In this document: piece by piece, positions 2,432-41,062 of the stretch
How positions within the stretch are numbered: position 1 is the first letter of the stretch
Layout of the letters: each line of letters begins with the position of its first letter
Assembly (NCBI GenBank): GCA_965242965.1
Contig: OZ251518.1
Span: forward strand, 3,513,838 to 3,577,837
DNA: 64,000 nt
Source of the DNA: Candidatus Poribacteria bacterium
Lineage (GTDB): Bacteria; Poribacteria; WGA-4E; WGA-3G
Reading direction: 5' to 3'
The notes under the pieces: generated by a model
Databases searched by the model: none
What the model saw: only the letters and a program-made list of their open reading frames with translations
Told to the model about the DNA's origin: nothing
Position numbers and translations under genes: made by a program

Positions 2432-3762
2432 ACGTCCTTCGCGAGATTTCACTTTCTGAATACGGAAAAGCGTCAAGCACGCCTTCCCCGATAAATCGGT
2501 TGATGACAGATTTCGCTGTTGATTTTCGGGATGGATGGGACATCAACCTCGGCGCGGGCTATGTCAACGAAAACACTATTCCGCGCGAACAGATTCTGCA
2601 TGCGTGTGGAGAAGTGCTCGCGCGTCCCGAAAAGTATCGCGCCGCGCTCAATTACGGCGGCGCGCAAGGTTCGCCGAACCTGATTGCGTCCCTCCGCCGG
2701 TTTTACGTTGAGAACCGCATCGGCGGCATGACAGAACAAACCTTCCGCACGCGAGATATTCTCATCGGCGCGAACGGCGCGACGAGTCTGTTGGAAGGCA
2801 TCACGCAACTGCTACCGGCAGGTATCGTTCTCACTGCCGAACCGATGTATTATATTTACTGCAATGACTTGGGTAGAAAGGGCTTCCGCGTTATCGCCAT
2901 CCCTGAAGATGACGAAGGACTTCAGACAGAACTACTGAAGGCGAAGTTAAAGCGGTTGGGACGCGAGAAGGATGCGATTCGCTTTGTCTATGTCGTAACG
3001 GTGAACAACCCGACGAGCACCATCATGTCCAATCGCCGCATGCGGGAATTGGTGGAGATTGTTACGCGGTTGTCTCACGAAATCGGCAGGAAAATCCCGC
3101 TCTTTTTTGATAATGCGTATCGCGATTTAGTGCATGATTCGTCTGTGGAGCCGATAGTTTCTCCGATGCTTGATGATACCCTCGGCATCGTCTATGAAAT
3201 CGGCACGTTGTCCAAGATTCTCGCGCCGGGGATGCGTATCGGCTATCTTATCGGGCCGAAAGGTGATTTTTTCAACGGCATGGTGCAGCGGACTACAGAT
3301 ATTGGGTTTAGCGCGCCGTTAATCAACCAAGAAATCGCCAGTTACTTGCTTGACAACGGCATTGAAATGCAAATAACGAAGGTGAATGGCGCGTACCGAC
3401 AGAAGGCGACACAGGTGAAAGCGTGGATAGCAGCACTGCTCGGCGATGAGATTGCGGCGTGCAGCGGCGGGAGCGCGGGGTTCTATTTCTATCTGACACT
3501 TTCACGTGTTGAGACAGGCGCGGGGAGTGACTGTTTCAAGTTTTTGACGCGGACTACCGGGGATGCCGAGATAGATGGCACGGTAAGTGCCCCGCAGCCA
3601 AAGGTGATTTACATTCCGGGTGAGCACTGCGTCCATCCTGAAGGCGATATGGTTGAGGTTGGCAAGCGGCAGTTGCGTATCTCTTACGGGTTTGAGGAGC
3701 TCCCGCAGCTTCACACGGCGTTGAAGCTGATGAAAGCTGCGATAGATTTTAGTTCCCGGTAG
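2419..3762 (+). CDS. PLP-dependent aminotransferase (class I/II fold)
   Basis: SKILAPGMRIGYLIGP lysine-containing motif and NPTS... region typical of fold-type I aminotransferases. Overlaps the upstream stop; an alternative ATG at 2428 gives an ATGA overlap. Confidence 0.75.
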   Translation: MSGMNVLREISLSEYGKASSTPSPINRLMTDFAVDFRDGWDINLGAGYVNENTIPREQILHACGEVLARPEKYRAALNYGGAQGSPNLIASLRRFYVENRIGGMTEQTFRTRDILIGANGATSLLEGITQLLPAGIVLTAEPMYYIYCNDLGRKGFRVIAIPEDDEGLQTELLKAKLKRLGREKDAIRFVYVVTVNNPTSTIMSNRRMRELVEIVTRLSHEIGRKIPLFFDNAYRDLVHDSSVEPIVSPMLDDTLGIVYEIGTLSKILAPGMRIGYLIGPKGDFFNGMVQRTTDIGFSAPLINQEIASYLLDNGIEMQITKVNGAYRQKATQVKAWIAALLGDEIAACSGGSAGFYFYLTLSRVETGAGSDCFKFLTRTTGDAEIDGTVSAPQPKVIYIPGEHCVHPEGDMVEVGKRQLRISYGFEELPQLHTALKLMKAAIDFSSR

Positions 3763-8174: not shown

Positions 8175-8389
8175 CTGTTCTTCCTTCGTAGGCGCGCTTT
8201 GTCATCGCGCTTCCCAAATGGGCGTTTTAGGAATTCGCGTCCAGTTTGGACGTTATTAGTTTAACACAAACCGTAATCTCGTGCAAGCGATTTTCATTCT
8301 CGCTAGAAAACCGCCGTCCCTCTGTCGCGCGAGTGCCTGTCTTTCGCAATCCTGTCTTTCGCAATCCTGCCTGGCGCAATCTCGTTCCG

Positions 8390-9406
8390 TTACTGAACCT
8401 CCTCATTCGCGCGCTTCACCAACGCATTCATGTAGGCGATGGTATACGCGGTGCCAACGCGAGAATCGCCAGCCATGCTCGGAATGTGGTCTGGAATCAT
8501 CACGCCGTTGAAGTTCACCTCTCGAAGAACCTTCGCAACCTGATACATATCCTGATAGCCGTTGTCGACGAACGTCTCCACGAAGTGCGGGAGCGGCTGA
8601 TCTACGTTGCGGAAATGCACCTTGAAAATCTTGCCGCGTTCGCCGAAGTATCGGATAGATTCAATGACATCTTTGCCCATCAATTCGCCGCCTTCGAGCC
8701 AGCAGCCGACGCAGAAGCACATCCCGACGTTCGGGCTATCCGCAATCTCAAGCGCGCGTTTGTAGCCCTCGAAACTGCTGAAAATGCATCGCGGAATGCC
8801 GGCGAGATGCACTGCCGGCGGATCATCGGGATGGATGCCTATCATCACGCCTGCCTCCTCGGCGACAGGCGCGGCTTCCTTGATGAAGTGCGCGTAGTTA
8901 TCCCACAACTCCGCCTCGCTGAATTCGCGTCCGTGCGAAAGCGGCATCGGGTAGGTATTACCACCCCAGTGTCCCTCTTGCGCGGTTTCCAGATTGAACG
9001 CCCGCGCGCTTGCACCGCCACGCGTCGTCTCGCGCGCAGTGCTCCAAATGCCGTTGCCCATGTGCGCATACGTCGTGTAGGGAATCCCGGCTTTGCCCAA
9101 GTCGCGAATATACCGCTTATACTGCTCAAGTTTGGCATCGCGATTCGCTAGGTTCAACACGATGCTGTCCTGATTATGGACATCGCTGTTGCCGAATCCA
9201 TAAATTTTCAGACCGGCGTTCTCGAAAATCTCGCGGCGGCTCATGAAATAGTCGTAATTTGCATTCGCGCCGTTCGTCCACAGCACCACGTAATCAACAT
9301 CCATCTGCTTAGCAAATTGCAAGTCTTCCGGGGTTGGCTCCGGCGACATCTGCGCCGTGACTTTGATGCCGGGTTCAATGTTTTGTAACGGGTTTTGTGT
9401 TGCCAT
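8390..9406 (-). CDS. uxuA: mannonate dehydratase
   Basis: UxuA-like TIM-barrel sequence (…YFGERGKIFKVHFRNVDQPLPHFVETFVDNGYQDMYQVAKVLREVNFNGVMIPDH…). Start set at ATG 9406 with GGAGG 9 nt upstream; the ORF extension to 9439 lacks an RBS. Confidence 0.8.
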   Translation of the reverse strand: MATQNPLQNIEPGIKVTAQMSPEPTPEDLQFAKQMDVDYVVLWTNGANANYDYFMSRREIFENAGLKIYGFGNSDVHNQDSIVLNLANRDAKLEQYKRYIRDLGKAGIPYTTYAHMGNGIWSTARETTRGGASARAFNLETAQEGHWGGNTYPMPLSHGREFSEAELWDNYAHFIKEAAPVAEEAGVMIGIHPDDPPAVHLAGIPRCIFSSFEGYKRALEIADSPNVGMCFCVGCWLEGGELMGKDVIESIRYFGERGKIFKVHFRNVDQPLPHFVETFVDNGYQDMYQVAKVLREVNFNGVMIPDHIPSMAGDSRVGTAYTIAYMNALVKRANEEVQ

Positions 9407-9439
9407 TTTACGGTTCCTCCGTGAGCGGTGGTTTGTCAT

Positions 9440-9905
9440 ACTGGAAGTGAGGGTGTTTCATAAATCCCCGTAGGAGAGACCTCCCGGTCTCGATGCAATA
9501 GAGCGGCGAGCCTACCGGGGCGGCGGCAGAAAGCCCCTTCATCGTAGGGCGAGGGCCTGTCCCTCGCCATCGTCGGCGCAATCCAACGCTCGCGGGGGAC
9601 AGGCCCCCGCACTACAAAAAACGTCTCTTAGGTCCGTAGGACCTTAATGTCTATAGCATGCGCGAACGCGAAGAATCCTAAGGTCCTTTAGGTCCTTAAT
9701 AGTTTTTGACATGCGGCGCGTTTTTTATTAAGGACCTAAAGGACCTTGAAAACGTAACGACACGTGTATCTATAGACATGTAGGTCCTAAAGGACCTAAA
9801 ACGTCCCCTCTTGACGCTGGCCAACGCGGGGCCTGTCCCCCGCGCTACGGGAACATCGAGACCAGGAGGTCTCTCCTACGGGGAGCCCTCGCCTTACGGG
9901 CACAG
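9440..9905. repeat. composite repeat island (E, A, B, C, B, A)
   Basis: TGAGGGTGTTTCATAAATCC, CCGTAGGAGAGACCTCCCGGTCTCGATG, REP-like CGTAGGGCGAGGGCCTGTCCCTCGCCATCG / CGCGGGGGACAGGCCCCCGCACTAC, and a full C element. Confidence 0.85.
9616..9803. repeat. C element copy 1: ~190-bp palindromic MITE-like element with 8 AGGTCC/GGACCT hexamers
   Basis: AGGTCCGTAGGACCTTAATGTCTATAGCA ... CTAAGGTCCTTTAGGTCCTTAATA ... TATTAAGGACCTAAAGGACCTTGAAAAC ... TATAGACATGTAGGTCCTAAAGGACCTAAAACG; left and right ~75-nt arms are near-perfect reverse complements. Confidence 0.85.
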
Positions 9906-9909
9906 GCAT

Positions 9910-11307
9910 TTATTCCTCATCCTTTGCCTCTGCCTTCAGCCGATACAGTTCTGCTGTGAGTTCGGTGACGATGTCGGCATATCTCGGGTCAGCGTAGACG
10001 TTGCGCATTTCGCTCGGGTCCTTCTCCAGATCGAAGAGTTCCCATTCCGGCTGTTTCGATTCATCAACGGAGCCTGTCGTGCCGAGTGCTTCGCCGTAGT
10101 AATAGATGAGTTTATACCGATGCGTGCGGATGCCGTAGTGCGCGCCGACATAGTGGTGCGAGAGGTGCATCCAATAGCGGTAATACATGGCGGTTCGCCA
10201 GTCGTCCGGAGACTCGCCGTTAAGTAACGGACGAAGGCTGCGTCCCTGCATATCGTCAGGAATTGGGAGCCCGGCGTAATCGAGCCATGTCTCGGCGAAG
10301 TCAATGTTCAACGCCATTGCATCGCAAGAACTCCCCGGCTGAATTTCGCGCGGGTATCGGACGATGAAGGGCATCCGCAACGATTCTTCATACATGAACC
10401 GTTTGTCATACCACCCGTGGTCCCCCAAGAAAAAGCCCTGGTCGGACGTGTAGATGACTATCGTGTCATCGGCGATACCGTCGGCATCGAGATAGTCAAG
10501 CATCCTGCCGACGTTGTCATCAATTGAGGCGACGCAGCGGAGATATTCCTTCATATAACGTTGATATTGCCACTTCGCCAGTTCTTCCTCTGACAACCCA
10601 TCCGGCGGCGGACCGAGTGTGTCAAATTTCAGGTCGCGGGCGTTCATATCGCGTGCCACCCGCATTTTCGCCTCCTTCGCGGCGTTTGAGCGATTGGCGT
10701 AATCGTCAAAGAAGGTGTCAGGAAGCGGCACATCCTCGTTTTCAAACAGATGCGCGTGCTTCTCATCTGAATCCCACGGACGATGCGGTGCCTTGTGATG
10801 ACACATCAGGAAAAAAGGGCTTTCCCTGTCCCGATGCTGCAGCCATTCCAATGAGAAATCGGTGATGATATCCGTGGCGTAACCTTTATGCCTTTTCTCG
10901 CCGTCTGAATCCAGCATCACCGGATCGTGATAGAGTCCCTGTCCGGGCAAAACGTTCCAATAGTCGAATCCAGTTGGATCTGCGTTACCGCCGTGTCCGA
11001 GGTGCCATTTGCCTACCATTGCCGTTTGATAACCGGCTGCCTGTAGCATCTTCGCGACGTTCGGTTTTCTGCCATCAAGTTTGTCTGCCAGCGTTTTGAC
11101 CCCGTTGAGGTGGCTATGTTTCCCTGTCAAGATGTTTGCGCGGCTCGGCGTGCAGATAGAGTTGACACAGAAGCAGTTACGGAGGAGCATGCCGCCATCG
11201 GCGATGCGATCCAGTTGCGGGGTTTGGTTGATGCGACTTCCGTAGCAACTCATCGCGTGAGCCGCATGGTCATCGGACATGATAAATAGGATGTTCGGAG
11301 TGCTCAA
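9910..11307 (-). CDS. sulfatase (formylglycine-dependent, arylsulfatase family)
   Basis: ILFIMSDDH and the CTPSRANILTGKHSH C-x-P-x-R signature. The ORF start is TTG at 11307 with GGAG 5 nt upstream. Confidence 0.85.
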   Translation of the reverse strand: MSTPNILFIMSDDHAAHAMSCYGSRINQTPQLDRIADGGMLLRNCFCVNSICTPSRANILTGKHSHLNGVKTLADKLDGRKPNVAKMLQAAGYQTAMVGKWHLGHGGNADPTGFDYWNVLPGQGLYHDPVMLDSDGEKRHKGYATDIITDFSLEWLQHRDRESPFFLMCHHKAPHRPWDSDEKHAHLFENEDVPLPDTFFDDYANRSNAAKEAKMRVARDMNARDLKFDTLGPPPDGLSEEELAKWQYQRYMKEYLRCVASIDDNVGRMLDYLDADGIADDTIVIYTSDQGFFLGDHGWYDKRFMYEESLRMPFIVRYPREIQPGSSCDAMALNIDFAETWLDYAGLPIPDDMQGRSLRPLLNGESPDDWRTAMYYRYWMHLSHHYVGAHYGIRTHRYKLIYYYGEALGTTGSVDESKQPEWELFDLEKDPSEMRNVYADPRYADIVTELTAELYRLKAEAKDEE

Positions 11308-29477: not shown

Positions 29478-30308
29478 TCAACGAGTTAAGCCTAAGAATT
29501 CATAGGCATCAATGTAACCGTCTGGCAATTCATGGACGGTTATCCCTGGTGGAATTTCACCTTCATCAAGATATGGCTCATAGATATGCGCTGTGTCGGG
29601 ATGACCGCGGGTGACTCCCGCATATCTATGAGTTATCCCGTCATCATCTGTCCAGTAGTCCCATTTAACATAAACAACATCAGGATAGAGCAGATAGACT
29701 TTACCGTCGGCATCACCTGTAACGCCTACGTTTTCAAGTGATATTCCTTGTTTCCAGAATTCAACGATGAGTCGTTTTTGGAGCTCAAGAGCTTTACGCA
29801 TATCTGAGTCTCCCATTGAAGCAAGACTTTTGAATATGTCCGGTTCAGGGAAGTCCTCTGGAATCTCTGGATAAGGCCCGAATCTGAAGGGCGATATAGA
29901 TAGGGCTACCGATTCTTCCTCGGCGGTTTCTTTGTCGGAAGCCGGCAATTCCGGGGCTGCTGCGGTATCCCCGCGCGCCGCCTTTGCATTCGGAAGACGC
30001 TCTGTGATGTCAAACACCGTTGCCGCACCATTGTCCGTTGCAACGGATTTCGCGGCTTGTTCTTCCGCGTCTCTGTCTGTTATCTGCCGCGGCTGTTGTG
30101 CATTCGTGGTCTGGCGATTTTCTAGTTGCTGTAGGAACCGTTGGGTTCTGACTTCGTCGTTTCGGATGTCGCGTTCGCCATGCCACCGATAGAGCAGGCT
30201 GCCGGCGATGAGAAGGACGCAGCCGATGAGCCCGGCGCGAACGAGTTTGCTTGAAAGTATGTCCTGTAACATGTGCATTCTCCTGAGTAAGGATACACGA
30301 TTTCGCAA
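29478..30308 (-). CDS. membrane-anchored hypothetical protein (paralog of 27085..27639, with a longer acidic/Gln-rich linker)
   Basis: Same N-terminal block and C-terminal FRFGPYPEIPEDFPEPD motif; DNA is ~95% identical to 27530-27660 across the start region. Alternative start ATG 30272. Confidence 0.6.
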   Translation of the reverse strand: MRNRVSLLRRMHMLQDILSSKLVRAGLIGCVLLIAGSLLYRWHGERDIRNDEVRTQRFLQQLENRQTTNAQQPRQITDRDAEEQAAKSVATDNGAATVFDITERLPNAKAARGDTAAAPELPASDKETAEEESVALSISPFRFGPYPEIPEDFPEPDIFKSLASMGDSDMRKALELQKRLIVEFWKQGISLENVGVTGDADGKVYLLYPDVVYVKWDYWTDDDGITHRYAGVTRGHPDTAHIYEPYLDEGEIPPGITVHELPDGYIDAYEFLGLTR

Positions 30309-32174: not shown

Positions 32175-32201
32175 AAAAAAGGGTAGGCCATAAGCCTACC
32201 C
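32175..32201 (-). terminator. Rho-independent terminator downstream of hicA
   Basis: Minus strand reads GGTAGGC-TTATG-GCCTACC followed by TTTTTT (complement of A6 at 32175-32180). Confidence 0.7.
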
Positions 32202-32250
32202 TGAAAAAGGTTTGCCACATTCACTATTCATCATAGTGAACCTAGCGATG

Positions 32251-32502
32251 TCACGAATTGTTTTTAGTTTTCAATCTTGTCTTCCAATCCCACCCGGCTT
32301 GGCGGTAGATCTCGCGCAGGGTTCCTCTCGCGAGTTCTTTATTTCCTCGCGACGGTCGAGGGACAACAACCCGCCCCCGCGCCGGATGTTTATAGTGGTG
32401 ATGACTCCCTCGGGTACGAAGATATTCAAAACCGTCCTGCCGCAGCCTCGCGACCACTTGATTGAAAGTCAGAAGGAAAGCCATAGAAACTCCTTTCTCC
32501 AC
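32251..32502 (-). CDS. hicA: HicA-family mRNA interferase toxin
   Basis: LRQDGFEYLRTRGSHHHYKHPARGRVVVPRP...ELARGTLREIYRQAG matches the HicA consensus (GSHHHFKHP...VPHP...GTL..I.KQAG). Confidence 0.85.
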   Translation of the reverse strand: MEKGVSMAFLLTFNQVVARLRQDGFEYLRTRGSHHHYKHPARGRVVVPRPSRGNKELARGTLREIYRQAGWDWKTRLKTKNNS

Positions 32503-32700
32503 ATGGGAGAGTTCGTAGGTTAAAACGTTCGAGATTAGTTAATCACCTTTTTCCTTTTAGTCCACCCATTGGCTTAAACGGAAGCCTGAGTGCACTTGTT
32601 TAAAGCCCGATGTGTCACAACGGGCTAAGCCTTAAGTAAGTGCCGGGGTCTCCGCATTCTGGCACAGGACACTGCCTGCTGCGGGTTTGGTTAAAGCGGA

Positions 32701-33018
32701 TTAGCCGACAGCTGCATTAGAAAAACTCGGGGACTTTCCATAGACGACTTCATCAGTCAGTGCGGCGAGATCTACTGACACCGTTTCCCACACACCATCG
32801 GCGTAATCGGGATTATTTTTATGGAAAGCGATGTTTTTGGGAGTAGGGATGGGCTCACTGTCAAGCAATAAGCCTTCAAGATAACATTCAATGGCTTCGA
32901 CAGCTTGCGTCTGCGCATCCTTGACCGTTTCCCCGGAAGTGAAGCACCCTGGTAAATCAGGCACTGTCACTCCATAGTCACTGCCCGGGTCTTTGTGGAG
33001 AACAATGGAATAACGCAT
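32701..33018 (-). CDS. hicB: HicB-family antitoxin
   Basis: MRYSIVLHKDPGSDYGVTVPDLPGCFTSGETVKDAQTQAVEAIECYLEGLLLDSEPIP matches the HicB N-terminal domain consensus. Confidence 0.85.
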   Translation of the reverse strand: MRYSIVLHKDPGSDYGVTVPDLPGCFTSGETVKDAQTQAVEAIECYLEGLLLDSEPIPTPKNIAFHKNNPDYADGVWETVSVDLAALTDEVVYGKSPSFSNAAVG

Positions 33019-33084
33019 TAAGCACCTTTAGTTCTGATAGATGAAGGGACAGGCTCGGTGCCTGTCCCCTTTTCCAAAAAGGTT

Positions 33085-33202
33085 TTCCGGCGGCGACTTA
33101 CTTTCCCACGGGGTTGCCCCCGCAGTATCATCAGCGCAGAAGGGCTTAACGGCCGTGTTCGGGATGGGAACGGGTGGTGCCCCTTCGCTATAGCCACCGG
33201 AA
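33085..33202 (-). rRNA. rrf: 5S ribosomal RNA
   Basis: Minus strand TCCGGTGGCTATAGCGAAGGGGCACCACCCGTTCCCATCCCGAACACGGCCGTTAAGCCCTTCTGCGCTGATGATACTGCGGGGGCAACCCCGTGGGAAAGTAAGTCGCCGCCGGAAAACC; ends approximate within ~3 nt. Confidence 0.9.
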
Positions 33203-33292
33203 AGGTGTTTTGTCATATATTGTATTGACAAGAAAATTTGACAATTGCATAGATTAGGTGAGGGTGTCGGTAGAAGAAATAATAAAGAAGTT

Positions 33293-36283
<2,991 letters not shown>

Positions 36284-36451: not shown

Positions 36452-36469
36452 AAGTGGCATTACTCTTTA

Positions 36470-36901
36470 AGTATACCACAAAAAAACGCATTTGTCAAAT
36501 TTATTTTTCAAAAAAACGGATTTGCTGACACAAACCCTCGCGATGGTATATAGTATACCACGAAAACTGCGCAATGTCAAATTAAAATCAAATTAAAATG
36601 ACAATTTCGTCATCGTTGAGGTTAATTATACCACAAAAAAGATGCAATGTCAAATTAAAATGACGATTTCTGCGAATTTCTGCTGAATTACGCCACAAAA
36701 AGTGCGCGATGTCAAATTAAAACGACAATTTCGTCATCGTTGAGGTTAATTATACCACAAAAATGACGCAATGTCAAATTAAAATGACATTTTCTGCGGA
36801 ATTCTTGTTAATTCTGCCCCAAAAAGTGCGCGATGTCAAATTAAAACGACAATTTCGTCATCGTTGAGGTTAATTATACCACAAAAATGACGCAATGTCA
36901 A
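36470..36901 (-). promoter_or_regulatory. array of seven tandem sigma70-consensus promoters directed at tRNA-Ala/23S/5S
   Basis: Plus-strand coordinates of -35 (TGTCAA) and -10 (complement of the -10 hexamer), spacer exactly 17 in every case. P1: 36493-98 / 36470-75 (TATACT). P2: 36575-80 / 36552-57 (TATACT). P3: 36648-53 / 36625-30 (TATAAT). P4: 36710-15 / 36687-92 (CGTAAT). P5: 36772-77 / 36749-54 (TATAAT). P6: 36834-39 / 36811-16 (CAGAAT). P7: 36896-901 / 36873-78 (TATAAT). AT-rich UP-like TTTTAATT precedes each -35. Underlying ~125-bp tandem DNA repeats. Confidence 0.75.
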
Positions 36902-36903
36902 AT

Positions 36904-38859
36904 TTATTTAAAAAAAGTGCTCGTATCCCACAGCAGAATGGTGCCATCGAAACTGCCGCTCGCCAAAAGCGCGCCATCCGGCGAAAAGGCAAGAGACTGA
37001 ATGTCAGTGGAATGTCCCCAGAAAGTGGCGATGTTCTCACCCGTTGCAACCTCCCAGAATCTGATGGACATCTTATCCGTGCCTTGCCACGCTGCCCCCG
37101 ATACGAGATACCTGCCACATGGCGAAAATGTCAACGCCTCCGGTCTTTGGCATCCTTGCGGCAGGCATATCACCATGAGCGTTTCATACCTTTTCGCGTC
37201 CCATAGCCAAATTTCCCGGAAAATTCCACCGGCAATCACGTTCCCGCATGGCGAAAATACAACAGTCTTTGGAACAGCATTGTATTCTATCCGTTTAAGT
37301 GCGCGTTGAATTTGACGCGCATCGCCTTTATATTTCTCTAAATCTTTGGGACGGTGAGTGGACAGTTCCGTGATGAGCCGCCAATCGTCAACATCCCAAA
37401 GGAACGCTTTCGTATAGGGAGACGCGACAGCGAGGGACTTTCCATCAGGCGAAAAAGCGATGTGCCAAATCCAATCCGATTTTCCGTTCAGCGTCTGTAG
37501 CGCGGTTCCGTTTTGTAAATCCCACTCTATCAGGCCGCCGCCACCATCTGCGCTCACTAATCGTTCCTCTGTTGGAGAGAACGCGACAGCATAAATCGGT
37601 TTTTCCTGATGTCCCGTTAACTTCGCAATCGGCGCGTCGGGTTTCTCAACGTCCCACACCCTGACTATGCCATCGTAGGCACTGGCGGCGAGTTTGTTTC
37701 CACACGGCGAAAAACTGATTGAACGGATTGTCATCGGTTCTTCTGCGAAAACGACTTGCGGTTCTCGCCGCGCAACATCCCAAAAGATTATGTCTCCTAT
37801 CCAATGGCCGGCAGCCAACTTTTTTCCATCTGGGGAGAATTTGACGCAGCCACAGACATAGGGATGCTTCCGAATAAGGGCTTCGTGCGGCGTGGCCTCG
37901 CCGATATTCCACACCTGAATTGTGCGAGGACCGGCGATGGCCACGTGCGACTCTGTGGTTTGCGAAAAATGCGTGGCATGCGAAATTTCGCGCAGCTCTT
38001 TATGTTCCAACGCCGCTAATTTTTTGTTGCGTTCCATATCCCACACAATGAGCGTGGTGCCGCTGACCTCGGATGCGAGCAAAGTTCCCTTTGACGAATA
38101 AGCGAATCTCTTCCGGCCATTTGTCGAGGAGACGGTTGAAGGTTCTCCGGTTTCCGCGAGTCGGTTGACATCCCACTTCCGCAGCGTGCCCTCTCTGTCC
38201 GCTGTCGTCAGGAAAGTCCCGCACGGCGAGAAGAGCAGTGTTGTTACCGATGCCGTATGTCCGGTGAGACAAGCGATGCGTTCACCCGCTGTCAGATTCC
38301 AGACAGAAAAGGTGTTTTCAGCTGTCGCGCATGCGAGCAGAACGCCGTCCGGAGAAAAGGCGATGGGAATCCTCGGAAGAGGCCCCTTTTTAGGGGTATC
38401 GTCAACGGGGAATTCCGCAAGCGGTTCTCCGGTTTCGGCGTGCCAGACGTAAACAGTATCGTAGCGGCCCCCGGAACACGCTAAGCGTTGTCCGTCGGCT
38501 GAAAAGGCGAGCCGAGATACCTTATTCGCCTGTTTCCGGGTTCGTTCCATTTTGGCGATGCGTTGTTGGCTTGGCATATCCCAGACGCTCACGCCACCGT
38601 CCACATTGCCGGTAGCAAGCAAATGCCCGTTCGGCGAAAATGTCACCGCAGAAACCCCGCGTTCGGTATCCCATAACGCGAACGGTTCCATCGTGGACAC
38701 CTCGTAGAGCCAGAGCCCGATACCACTTCCGACGGCGAGAGTGTTCCTGTCTGGAGAGAATGCCAGTGCCCGCACCAACCCTCTGCCCAATCGTGCAATC
38801 GCGCCATCGGGGAGAATCCATGTGGTAATATCGCTATTTGCGCGATGCTGATTTTCCAC
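36904..38859 (-). CDS. WD40-repeat beta-propeller protein
   Basis: At least 12 WD40 repeats (e.g. GHSTDIQSLAFSPDGALLASGSFDGTILLWD). The start is uncertain: GTG at 38859 is preceded by GGAGG 6 nt upstream and avoids overlap with the LamG gene; the ATG-start ORF extends to 39075 but overlaps the upstream gene by 59-197 nt. Confidence 0.7.
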   Translation of the reverse strand: MENQHRANSDITTWILPDGAIARLGRGLVRALAFSPDRNTLAVGSGIGLWLYEVSTMEPFALWDTERGVSAVTFSPNGHLLATGNVDGGVSVWDMPSQQRIAKMERTRKQANKVSRLAFSADGQRLACSGGRYDTVYVWHAETGEPLAEFPVDDTPKKGPLPRIPIAFSPDGVLLACATAENTFSVWNLTAGERIACLTGHTASVTTLLFSPCGTFLTTADREGTLRKWDVNRLAETGEPSTVSSTNGRKRFAYSSKGTLLASEVSGTTLIVWDMERNKKLAALEHKELREISHATHFSQTTESHVAIAGPRTIQVWNIGEATPHEALIRKHPYVCGCVKFSPDGKKLAAGHWIGDIIFWDVARREPQVVFAEEPMTIRSISFSPCGNKLAASAYDGIVRVWDVEKPDAPIAKLTGHQEKPIYAVAFSPTEERLVSADGGGGLIEWDLQNGTALQTLNGKSDWIWHIAFSPDGKSLAVASPYTKAFLWDVDDWRLITELSTHRPKDLEKYKGDARQIQRALKRIEYNAVPKTVVFSPCGNVIAGGIFREIWLWDAKRYETLMVICLPQGCQRPEALTFSPCGRYLVSGAAWQGTDKMSIRFWEVATGENIATFWGHSTDIQSLAFSPDGALLASGSFDGTILLWDTSTFFK

Positions 38860-38878
38860 GCGCGCCCTCCGCGTTTGT

Positions 38879-39712
38879 TTACGGGGTATACCCGCGTTTG
38901 ACGTTTGCCCAAGTGGTTGCGAGTTTGTCAACCGCATCGACAGCAAAAGTGCCAGAGATGTTTTGGAGCACCTCTGCCTCGGTGAGTGCCTTATCATAAG
39001 CGCGGACGATGGCGAATGAACCGTTGAAAGTCCGCCGCCGTTCGTCGAAGGAATTCGCACCGATGGAGATGTCATTTATCGGTAACGCCTTGTCAAACTC
39101 AAAACCGGCTTGGCTGCTGACTTCTTCGCCATCTTGATATGCGACAATCGACTTGTCGTTAGTGCCGACAATCGTAAGCCAGGTCCACACGCCTTCCTCA
39201 AGTTTGAGGTTAAGCGGTTGAACGCCCTGTTTCGCACCTTGCGCATGGACAGAGATGTCCAAGTTTTGCCCGTTGACTATCCACAGCCGAATTCCCTGTT
39301 TCCCTTCCCGCGGGCTGTTTTGGAACCCGGCGAAGTGGTGTTCCTCCACAAAGAAATCGCCGTTGCGTCGGCAAAGGAACTCAAGCGTCCAGTCCTCAAA
39401 AAAGAGAGGCGGATTTTTTGCCGGCGGACCGCCGAAGGTTTGATGGGAATCCTTGGTTGTGTAATACTTCGCGTTCGGCAAGTCGATGCCGAGTGCAGGG
39501 ATTTTGATTGGCCCTTCCTCAAGTTCGGGTGCTTCGTCCGCGGCGGGTAATTCGCCTTCAGCCGTGCCGAGGTTTGTCCACGCGTCTTTGTGGCCTGGAT
39601 TATCAGCGGCATCGAGGTAAAGCACCGGGTCTGGAACGATATTAGCATTTGCGATGTTGCACGCGAGGGATAGGCAAAGTATCGTCGTGCAAAGTGAAAT
39701 AAGTGTTCTCAT
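38879..39712 (-). CDS. secreted LamG/concanavalin-A-like lectin-fold protein
   Basis: Signal peptide MRTLISLCTTILCLSLACNIANA; jelly-roll signature ...FNGSFAIVRAYDKALTEAEV. Confidence 0.6.
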   Translation of the reverse strand: MRTLISLCTTILCLSLACNIANANIVPDPVLYLDAADNPGHKDAWTNLGTAEGELPAADEAPELEEGPIKIPALGIDLPNAKYYTTKDSHQTFGGPPAKNPPLFFEDWTLEFLCRRNGDFFVEEHHFAGFQNSPREGKQGIRLWIVNGQNLDISVHAQGAKQGVQPLNLKLEEGVWTWLTIVGTNDKSIVAYQDGEEVSSQAGFEFDKALPINDISIGANSFDERRRTFNGSFAIVRAYDKALTEAEVLQNISGTFAVDAVDKLATTWANVKRGYTP

Positions 39713-39812
39713 TTGAGTCTTCCTCCTAGGGTTTGGAAAATAGATATGCCTCCGTTTCTGCTTGAAAACTATTATAACAGCATTTCAACATTTATTCAAG
39801 AGATAAAATAAG

Positions 39813-40560
39813 GGAATTTCATATTTCGATGTCTTTTTGGTAGGAGAGACCTCCCGGTCTCAATTTGTCCGTAGCGCGGGGGCCTGTCCCCCGCGATCGC
39901 AGCATGGCGAGGGACAGGCCCTCGCCCTACGGTGCGGGGGGTGGCGTTTTCGCGATCGCTGCATGGCCTACGATGAAGGGGGGAGGCGTTTTTTTTTCGT
40001 ATCGCGGGGGGGCTCGGATGCCAGACGCGCATCCGGGCTGGTTTCCCCCGCGAGTTCCATCGTCATGATGTGTGTTTCCCTCTCTGTAGTTTGTGATCGC
40101 CTGATCACAAACAGGTTAGGATCAGGCAATCCTGACCTACAGGGCCTGGCGCGAGAACGATGACGAGGGCCTGTCCCTCGCCATCGTTCGCGCTGCGGAA
40201 AAACCGTCTCTTGTTCTCTTCAGGTCCGTAGGACCTGAATGTCTATAGCAGCCGATACGCAAAATGCTCTAAGGGCCTTTAGGTCCTTAATAGCTTTTGC
40301 CAGGGCCGCGTGTTTTCTTATTAAGGACCTAAAGGACCTTGACAACGGTACGACACGTTTTTCTATAGACATGTAGGTCCTAACGGACCTAAAACGCCAC
40401 CTTGTGACGATGGAACAACGCGGGGGACAGGCCCCCGCGCTCCGGTAAAAAACGCCATCCCCTCACCGTAGGGCGGGGGCCTGTCCCTCGCCATCGTCCG
40501 CGCAATCCAATCCTCGCGGGGGACAGGCCCCGCGCTACGGATGCATCGAGACCAGGAGGT
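39813..40560. repeat. repeat island inside the 16S-23S insertion (E-like, A, B x3, D, B, C, B x2, A)
   Basis: Seen directly; ORFs 39837..40163, 39865..40068 and 40363..40803 (N-terminal part) are artefacts. Confidence 0.9.
40197..40397. repeat. C element copy 4
   Basis: AAAAACCGTCTCTTGTTCTCTTCAGGTCCGTAGGACCTGAATGTCTATAGCAG...TATTAAGGACCTAAAGGACCTTGACAAC...TATAGACATGTAGGTCCTAACGGACCTAAAACGCCAC. Confidence 0.85.
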
Positions 40561-40669
40561 CTCTCCTACCGGGATGCATGGATACCCGGCGCGCCTACCG
40601 GCAATTCCCCGTTTTTTGACTGTAGCTGAAGAAAACGCAATCGAAATCAGCAGCCATTGTGCATGTCTC

Positions 40670-40840
40670 CTAGCGAGTGTTTTCTGTAACGGCCGAGGGA
40701 TGTGGGCAGGTAACTTGCCCGGGTCTGTAATCACAATAACCTCTCCACCGGCATCCCTTCGTAACTGTTTGAGTCTTTTGACACCGGCTTCGTTCTGAGG
40801 CAACGATGAGAACCAGGAGAAAAACGATAAAGGCTTTCAT
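40670..40840 (-). CDS. possible small secreted Cys-containing peptide (56 aa)
   Basis: MKAFIVFLLVLIVASERSRCQKTQTVTKGCRWRGYCDYRPGQVTCPHPSAVTENTR; GGAG 8 nt upstream of the ATG. Below the 60-aa ORF-track cutoff; lies between a repeat island and tRNA-Ile. Confidence 0.3.
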   Translation of the reverse strand: MKAFIVFLLVLIVASERSRCQKTQTVTKGCRWRGYCDYRPGQVTCPHPSAVTENTR

Positions 40841-40988
40841 AAAACACTCCTTTTAAGAGCGACGGGCCATCGGGCAATTTGAAAAAACGAGGGGACAACG
40901 AGTAGGAAAGAAGGTATCCGTTCAGAAAACAACGACGATTTGAAAAGGGACCTTCCTTGAAAACCGCGCGATGTCAGTTTGATGTTGA

Positions 40989-41062
40989 TGGGCTTATCTG
41001 GAGTCGAACCAGAGACCTCGCGCTTATCAGGCGCGCGCTCTAACCGTCTGAGCTATAAGCCC
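40989..41062 (-). tRNA. tRNA-Ile (anticodon GAT)
   Basis: GGGCTTATAGCTCAGACGGTTAGAGCGCGCGCCTGATAAGCGCGAGGTCTCTGGTTCGACTCCAGATAAGCCCA; perfect 7-bp acceptor stem. Confidence 0.92.

Follow-up and report, generated by a model that had tools for sequence, protein, structure and literature searches.

The closest described relatives of the locus studied here are class 2 hicBA modules, which have a reversed gene order and a small HicB (63-103 codons) without a DNA-binding domain; their genes are described as closely linked or overlapping, and the control of these operons is an acknowledged question in the HicAB literature (Gerdes 2024, mBio, PMC10865869). Two precedents concern the flanks of ribosomal RNA (rRNA) genes. 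In the E. coli operons rrnA/B/D, the small RNAs rrA/rrB/rrF are transcribed when the first terminator is read through (PMC8144298), and in SAR11 the hypervariable region HVR2 is flanked by the 23S and 5S genes, which were proposed as sites of homologous recombination (PMC2217521). In this study, we analysed a hicB-hicA pair located directly downstream of the 5S rRNA gene in the genome of a sponge symbiont, Candidatus Poribacteria bacterium (assembly GCA_965242965.1, contig OZ251518.1, positions 3,513,838-3,577,837). This whole stretch of 64,000 nt is called the window below. With moderate confidence, we read the pair as a functional hicBA module at a site where cassettes are exchanged through 5S recombination, transcribed most likely by read-through from the rRNA genes and with a spacer that would act in cis. 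What appears to be new here is a class-2-like hicBA whose two genes are set apart by a long conserved spacer and which resides in a Poribacteria cassette hotspot anchored on 5S.

Identity of the hicBA module

The features on which the analysis centres are the following.

33201-33085, minus strand: 5S rRNA gene, which closes the tRNA-Ala-23S-5S unit (full-length match to Rfam RF00001, 109.9 bits)
33018-32701, minus strand: hicB antitoxin, 105 aa (Pfam PF15919 HicB_lk_antitox, 96.6 bits, cut-off 27, 1.5e-27)
32484-32251, minus strand: hicA toxin, 77 aa (Pfam PF07927 HicA_toxin, 63.9 bits, cut-off 27, 1.5e-17)
32202-32174, minus strand: intrinsic terminator of the module, AGGGTAGGC-TTA-TGGCCTACCCT, a 10-bp stem with a T-run

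The assignment as HicB and HicA, proposed in the original prediction from the sequence alone, was borne out by profile search, since both proteins pass the Pfam thresholds and solved structures also align. The HicA match spans positions 2-58 of the 58 in its profile. Residues 1-88 of HicB align to residues 2-90 of B. pseudomallei HicB 6g1n (4.9e-15) and, judged by sequence, form the N-terminal partial RNase-H-like HicB domain. HicA aligns to the HicA structures 4c26/6g26 (1.5e-08) with a His at the position of the catalytic residue; its motif GSHHH reads GSHHHYKHP opposite GSAHHFKHP of 4c26, which we take to be the H24A mutant. NCBIfam gave no match for either protein, and the PADLOC search of the module gave only a weak HicA-like match.

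The start of hicA is the ATG at 32484, which has an AGGAG Shine-Dalgarno sequence 7 nt upstream. The N-terminus (M/L)AFLLTF is common to the relatives, and the metagenome gene calls on all related contigs are 77 aa long; the three observations together rule out the GTG at 32502 as the start. Because hicA starts at 32484, the gap between the two genes measures 216 nt (32700-32485) and not 198 nt as first described. The terminator after hicA folds at -17.3 kcal/mol (z -4.0), and an equivalent terminator follows hicA in L012 (related loci are cited by L numbers).

Both genes are under purifying selection between lineages, with dN/dS values of 0.05-0.14 for hicB and 0.11-0.31 for hicA at saturated dS. 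Within the group of loci to which the window belongs (the window group), the identical HicB is encoded by 7 nucleotide haplotypes with up to 10 synonymous differences; as these loci were retrieved through the identical protein, the within-group dN/dS of hicB is zero by construction and the haplotypes are usable only as a synonymous-haplotype count. Based on these comparisons, the pair is judged to be a real, selectively maintained toxin-antitoxin module, and a functional type II HicBA module is the best explanation, its activity being predicted. As in other members of the family, HicA would be a ribosome-independent RNase that cleaves RNA, kept inactive when HicB binds directly to it.

Architecture of the module

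HicB ends 17 aa past the HicB domain and carries neither an RHH nor an HTH DNA-binding domain, so far as its sequence shows here, and thus could not bind DNA through a domain of its own. Most HicB homologues at 60-74% identity are 136-137 aa long and have a C-terminal RHH (PF07878). The gene order differs too: hicA lies directly upstream of hicB in 117 of the 160 other HicB loci and none of the 160 has hicB followed by hicA, while hicB comes first in every 105-aa lineage with both genes intact. The 105-aa HicB subfamily appears to have lost the RHH, with hicA moved downstream, and the resulting module matches in its gene content and order the class 2 hicBA of Gerdes (reversed order, small HicB without a DNA-binding domain). 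The HicB domain in the window is 65-74% identical to those of RHH-bearing (class 4) HicBs, which suggests a derivation from class 4 by loss of the RHH. Among the relatives, an in-frame HicB-HicA fusion and a tandem double HicB were observed in P0024 (118 aa) and P0002 (178 aa); by their sequences, these show the rearrangement of the module to be still ongoing.

Linkage of 5S and hicB in Poribacteria

The start of hicB lies 66 nt past the 3' end of 5S and on the same strand, in agreement with the first estimate of about 65 nt. Co-orientation as such carries little weight, because the minus strand holds every sizeable open reading frame (ORF) from ~21.7 kb to ~42.7 kb. More telling is the recurrence of the arrangement. 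The identical HicB occurs on 10 sponge-metagenome contigs in the order LamG, WD40, tRNA-Ala, 23S, 5S, hicB, hicA, PD40. The best match among species representatives is a Poribacteria chromosome, L020 (OX638351.1), and the other close relatives of HicB are also from Poribacteria. On viral contigs, relatives reached at most 55% identity and none was close; in the JGI metagenomes they reached at most ~66%, except for two partial matches at 70-72%.

Linkage of 5S and hicB was found in four Poribacteria lineages, i.e., the window group, L182, L020, and L010/L011, whose 23S genes are ~91% identical. L182, with a HicB 75% identical to that of the window, has 23S, 5S, a terminator, a promoter, and a hicB with an altered tail, but no hicA. 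L020 (23S 91% identical) has 23S, 5S, a hairpin, a TIR gene, and a frameshifted hicB pseudogene, again with no hicA. L010/L011 (HicB 81% identical) have a promoter, a degenerate 5S, an intact hicB, and, after a spacer of 218 nt, hicA, but 23S is absent from the vicinity; the degenerate 5S comprises positions 10-90 and was found by nhmmer (1.6e-10), below Rfam detection. The same 5S profile found no 5S at any of the ~160 HicB loci of other organisms. The arrangement had been called unusual; it is no one-off, as it recurs in four Poribacteria lineages, and it is found at none of the ~160 other loci. From these comparisons, the 5S-hicB linkage is taken to be old and lineage-wide.

As rRNA genes often break or mis-join metagenome assemblies, and the short contigs L006-L009 end inside 5S, an artefact joining the repeated rRNA gene to an unrelated contig has to be considered. 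However, the same junction occurs in at least nine independent assemblies from different samples, in L182, and in the closed long-read chromosome of another species (L020), and we regard an artefact as extremely improbable.

The module also occurs away from 5S, beside an IS630-type transposase (L012-L015) and near a cobalamin riboswitch (L016-L019, L183). This riboswitch (L016 5488-5676 and L183 4629-4851) precedes the short-spacer hicBA closely upstream but is on the other strand, and it serves a divergent dockerin-domain gene cluster.

Transcription of hicBA behind the rRNA genes

A hairpin separates 5S from hicB.

33071-33045, minus strand: 11-bp GC hairpin, AGGGGACAGGC-ACCGA-GCCUGUCCCUU, followed by UUCAUCUAUC; it begins 12 nt past 5S

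The 72-nt region with this hairpin folds at -27 kcal/mol (z -3.45). The hairpin could serve as the rRNA terminator or in processing or stabilisation, and by comparison with the relatives it occupies what appears to be the natural position of the rRNA terminator: hairpins stand at the matching position in L020 (AGGGCAGGT-TCATC-ACCTGCCCT, flagged terminator-like), in L182, and after the first 5S of L001. In L182, an 11-bp stem followed by TTTTCTCTT makes a canonical terminator, and next come a promoter (TTGACA-17-TACTAT) and hicB. In the window, the tail UUCAUCUAUC fails even the lenient T-run rule, as it has too few U residues. The earlier claim that the first terminator lies after hicA is correct as to the clean terminator at 32202-32174, but it holds only under a strict T-run rule, since the 11-bp hairpin comes earlier.

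Both arms of the hairpin are inverted copies of the 9-mer GGGACAGGC, of which the window has 61 copies where 0.5 would be expected, and the hairpin therefore belongs to a genome-wide palindromic repeat family. This dispersed REP-like family is built around GGGACAGGC/GCCTGTCCC, and its longer units (100-350 nt) share 72-98% identity with 39800-40600. Clusters lie at 9.5, 11.8-12.3, 14.1, 17.4-18.0, 24.9-25.1, 30.6-30.8, 39.8-40.6, 48.3-48.7, 50.6-50.9, 58.5-58.9, 60.8-61.3, and 63.2 kb.

A consensus scan, which sees sigma-70 consensus sites only, found no sigma-70-like promoter on the coding strand from 23S to hicB (33019-33300). Away from the rRNA genes, the module has upstream promoters that match 10-11 of the 12 consensus positions. 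The promoters upstream of the module in the relatives are as follows.

L012: TTGACA-17-TATACT
L016: TTGACA-17-TATCAT
L010: TTGACC-17-TATACT

Co-transcription of hicBA with the rRNA is plausible from the layout of these elements. Read-through would be the most plausible source of hicBA transcription because there is no recognisable promoter between 5S and hicB and HicB lacks a DNA-binding domain; it gains further plausibility because the U-tail of the hairpin is weak and no promoter was recognised from 23S onwards, while the modules of the relatives have near-consensus promoters. In this mechanism, rRNA transcripts would partly read through the weak-tailed hairpin after 5S, the sole barrier seen between hicBA and the 23S-5S transcription unit, and thus supply the hicBA mRNA.

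The same hairpin can also be read in the opposite way. It could be an efficient terminator, or an RNase processing site with the downstream RNA degraded, and hicBA could be expressed from an unrecognised promoter or be nearly silent, its adjacency to 5S being a recombination scar. The hairpins at the same position in L182, where a canonical terminator and a promoter are present, and in L020 would fit such an insulated neighbour, as would the length of the stem, the folding energy of the region, and the decay of the module in other 5S-linked lineages. On the other hand, the tail of the hairpin is too poor in U, the scan gave no promoter-like site for the 66-nt gap, 5S or the spacer, and the HicB protein is identical over the 7 haplotypes of this promoter-less arrangement. 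We consider insulation possible, though clearly less probable than partial read-through.

If read-through occurs, it could couple the toxin-antitoxin balance to rRNA synthesis, which is speculative. In its strongest form, hicBA would be wired to rRNA transcription and the module would report ribosome synthesis: when rRNA drops, as in the stringent response, the supply of labile HicB would halt and HicA would be freed to cleave RNA. That HicB without a DNA-binding domain cannot autoregulate, that hicBA is without a promoter of its own in the window, and that the 5S linkage is old (four lineages, 23S ~91% identical) would be in keeping with such a role. However, L182 has its own terminator and promoter between 5S and hicB, the same module runs from ordinary promoters elsewhere, and it was lost or has decayed in several 5S-linked lineages; the first and the last of these observations argue against a conserved rRNA coupling in particular. 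We therefore rate functional coupling as quite unlikely, the least probable of the biological alternatives discussed here.

The spacer between hicB and hicA

The intergenic segment is itself conserved.

32700-32485, minus strand: conserved non-coding spacer of 216 nt, a candidate structured RNA or leader

Spacers of 216, 218, and 254 nt occur in the window, L010, and L012, respectively; that of the L016 lineage has only 51 nt. The three long spacers are 72-76% identical over the aligned positions, with alignment scores 7-8 standard deviations above shuffles, although synonymous sites are saturated among those three lineages. A nhmmer profile of the spacer matches these modules only (1.45 Mb of loci searched). 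Inspection of 32503-32700 for a small ORF or a structured RNA had been suggested: the ORF was not found, with stops in all frames, and the RNA is a weakly supported candidate with a three-lineage consensus fold. This fold has an enclosing helix and three hairpins; 87% of the cells are paired, with 8 compensated pairs, vs 34-46% when the partners are slid, but only three lineages contribute, and one and the same alignment served to derive the structure and to test it.

Several other explanations of the spacer were rejected. A small protein is not encoded there, since all six frames bear stops and tblastx gave no conserved ORF in the three lineages. Nor is the spacer a decayed RHH domain: in tblastn searches with five RHH-bearing homologues, no match extended beyond HicB residues 1-90. 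The module contains no known RNA family, as Rfam at E<=5 gave just weak sub-threshold matches around the terminator and no match in the spacer. Homology to the classical hicAB leader was discarded because the nhmmer profile matches these modules only. A hairpin hiding the Shine-Dalgarno sequence of hicA is present in several lineages, no better than in shuffles, and the promoter scan found no hicA promoter inside the spacer in the window, L010 or L012. The spacer is thus a conserved non-coding element as judged from these alignments, and a structured hicA leader is possible from the modelled fold. Tentatively, we take it as probably acting in cis on hicA expression.

Probable recombination at the 3' flank of 5S

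Downstream of the module, a second copy of the 5S end is followed by the next gene.

32157-32028, minus strand: two tandem sigma-70-like promoters, TTGACT-17-TATGCT with TG and TTGACT-17-TATCCT
32024-31966, minus strand: pseudo-5S, 59 nt, in which the final ~53 nt of 5S and ~8 nt of its 3' flank recur in direct orientation and degenerate form
31877-30891, minus strand: PD40/TolB-like beta-propeller gene, secreted product, the next gene after the module

The pseudo-5S is 75-86% identical to 33133-33075 (86% over 58 nt by blastn), and the two segments bracket a 1.1-kb unit with hicBA as its sole content. With its helix pairing lost, the copy is a pseudogene fragment. Equivalent copies in L001, L002, L003, and L006 correspond to 5S positions 65-117 (nhmmer), and the pseudo-5S was found only in the window group. 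The tandem promoters presumably serve the PD40 gene. One of them (TTGACT-17-TATCCT, 32056-32028) directly adjoins the pseudo-5S, and the alignment suggests the 5S segment CCGTTAAGCCC as a possible origin of its -35 box; the decayed 5S copy may thus have been recruited as a promoter of PD40.

The relatives carry other contents at the same site. In L001 the order is 5S, a 1.5-kb cassette, a second full 5S, hicBA, and the pseudo-5S, and its identity to the window drops from 96% to 79% ~30 nt past the pseudo-5S. In L020, a 312-aa TIR protein (2818-3756; Pfam CAP12-PCTIR_TIR, 2.6e-39; PADLOC candidate defence system PDC-S35, 2.4e-64) is encoded right after 5S and ahead of the frameshifted hicB. Each of the four cassette junctions lies no more than 2-4 nt from ...CCGGAAAACC(TT), a junction sequence also given as ...GGAAAACC. 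A recombination hotspot at the 3' flank of 5S would be the best explanation, because the 5S end and its degenerate copy bracket the module and the relatives carry other cassettes, an extra 5S or a decayed hicB. The region directly 3' of 23S-5S would then hold cassettes that vary between strains, with the module in its first slot. In the simplest reading, the conserved 5S sequence would have mediated homologous (Campbell-type) recombination repeatedly.

Further details of these loci are given here as observations. The L001 insert (8305-9806) has its own post-5S hairpin and encodes two signal-peptide proteins (247 and 159 aa), for which no Pfam or PADLOC family was found, and it partly resembles 30142-30273 of the window. 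At L001 13611-13828, 2.6 kb downstream, a second promoter and pseudo-5S unit is 95% identical to 32092-31969 of the window and directly abuts an internal piece of 23S, 96 nt long (window 34093-33998). L003 has a third 5S-end fragment (10038-10076).

The unit might instead be a site-specific mobile cassette with the 3' end of 5S as its integration target, in the manner of islands at tRNA/tmRNA genes; the insertion would rebuild the gene end and shift the former end to the other side of the element. The direct repeat (59 nt) of the 5S end, the narrow range of the four junctions, and the variation of cassettes across strains and species could all be explained in this way. However, no integrase was found in the 1.1-kb unit or the ~10 kb downstream, no close relatives were found on viral contigs, and the pseudo-5S is restricted to the window group while the 5S-hicB linkage is older. 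Moreover, the second 5S of L001 is full length, a better fit to homologous (Campbell-type) recombination than to an att site. Site-specific integration is accordingly thought unlikely, although somewhat less so than functional coupling to rRNA synthesis.

Weight of the evidence

Several results weigh against the reading that we favour, in which a functional module at the recombination site is transcribed by read-through. The module has decayed in three of the four 5S-linked lineages, and hicA is missing in L182, L020, and L180; the last belongs to the L010 lineage, in which the L010/L011 contigs keep both genes. Because of this decay, the position behind 5S does not protect the module, and it may have no functional meaning. 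The 11-bp hairpin is strong and stands where L182 has a canonical terminator, so that it may stop most transcription, and the restriction of the promoter scan to sigma-70 consensus sites counts on the same side. As to the spacer, the circularity of its fold has been mentioned, and a thermodynamic signal was sought and rejected, the folding energy being ordinary (z -0.75). For the proposed recombination site, no integrase or recombinase was found in the 1.1-kb unit, the 9 downstream ORFs or the gene tables of L001-L004, and there is no foreign base composition, the GC content being unremarkable.

The separate elements could be combined into one account. The 3' end of 5S would be a conserved homology anchor at which defence and toxin-antitoxin cassettes are swapped by recombination, leaving 5S repeats; hicBA, having lost both the DNA-binding domain and its promoter, would be expressed by leaky read-through, and a structured RNA of a new kind in the spacer would set the toxin level, with the whole tied to rRNA synthesis. 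That all of these parts hold together is unlikely, about as much so as the site-specific cassette.

Genomic setting

The rRNA genes upstream of the module, besides 5S, are as follows.

42719-41169, minus strand: 16S rRNA gene, the first of the rRNA features, followed by tRNA-Ile
36286-33290, minus strand: 23S rRNA gene, between tRNA-Ala and 5S

On the minus strand, the order is 16S, tRNA-Ile, 4.5 kb with two protein genes, tRNA-Ala, 23S, 5S, hicB, and hicA. The rRNA operon is thus split, as the 4.5 kb (36452-40989) separate tRNA-Ile from tRNA-Ala, and the layout is repeated on related contigs. The insert holds a LamG gene (39712-38879) and a WD40 gene (39075-36904), both co-oriented with the operon, and dense repeats. 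Between the end of WD40 and tRNA-Ala lies a tandem repeat (36588-36904, period 62/124 nt, 5.1 copies), the copy number of which varies across related contigs.

Comparison with known systems

It is common for HicB proteins to lack a DNA-binding domain, and the present module offers a concrete, testable case for the question of how their operons are controlled (PMC10865869). It also offers a contrast, since the module has ordinary promoters in some genomes, while in others it follows the cell's strongest transcription unit with no recognised promoter of its own and with a conserved non-coding element separating antitoxin and toxin. Should there be no read-through, the locus would simply be a toxin-antitoxin pair beside an rRNA operon. 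The 5S flank is of interest in its own right as a putative hotspot for small cassettes in an uncultured symbiont phylum, with a toxin-antitoxin pair, a TIR defence gene, and secreted proteins; if this is true, a stable-RNA gene other than tRNA/tmRNA is added to the known anchors of recombination.

Compared with the classical HicAB systems (B. pseudomallei 4c26, 6g26, 6g1n; E. coli), the fold signature of HicA and its GSH(H) motif are shared, and the N-terminal domain of the window HicB aligns over residues 1-88. However, classical modules have hicA before hicB in tight coupling, whereas the module in the window is reversed and uncoupled, and the classical HicB bears an RHH or HTH at its C-terminus and is autoregulating, a domain that the window HicB is without. 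The module is closer to class 2 hicBA in its order from hicB to hicA and in its small HicB without a recognisable DNA-binding domain, next to a HicA of 77 aa. Unlike class 2, its HicB of 105 codons is just above the range of 63-103, and its genes are not closely linked or overlapping, as in translational coupling, but separated by a conserved non-coding spacer of 216 nt (216-254 nt over the lineages with long spacers).

As in E. coli rrnA/B/D, the cargo lies between a first post-5S terminator, a candidate one in the window, and a second, cleaner one. In E. coli this cargo is a small RNA expressed by read-through, while in the window it is a ~0.9-kb protein-coding pair for which read-through is inferred only. 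Similarly, the Poribacteria 5S flank resembles SAR11 HVR2 in that strain-variable genes adjoin rRNA genes. HVR2, however, is ~48 kb long, lies between 23S and 5S, and carries cell-surface genes, whereas the Poribacteria loci have small cassettes (toxin-antitoxin, TIR, secreted proteins) 3' of 5S that are split by 5S-derived repeats.

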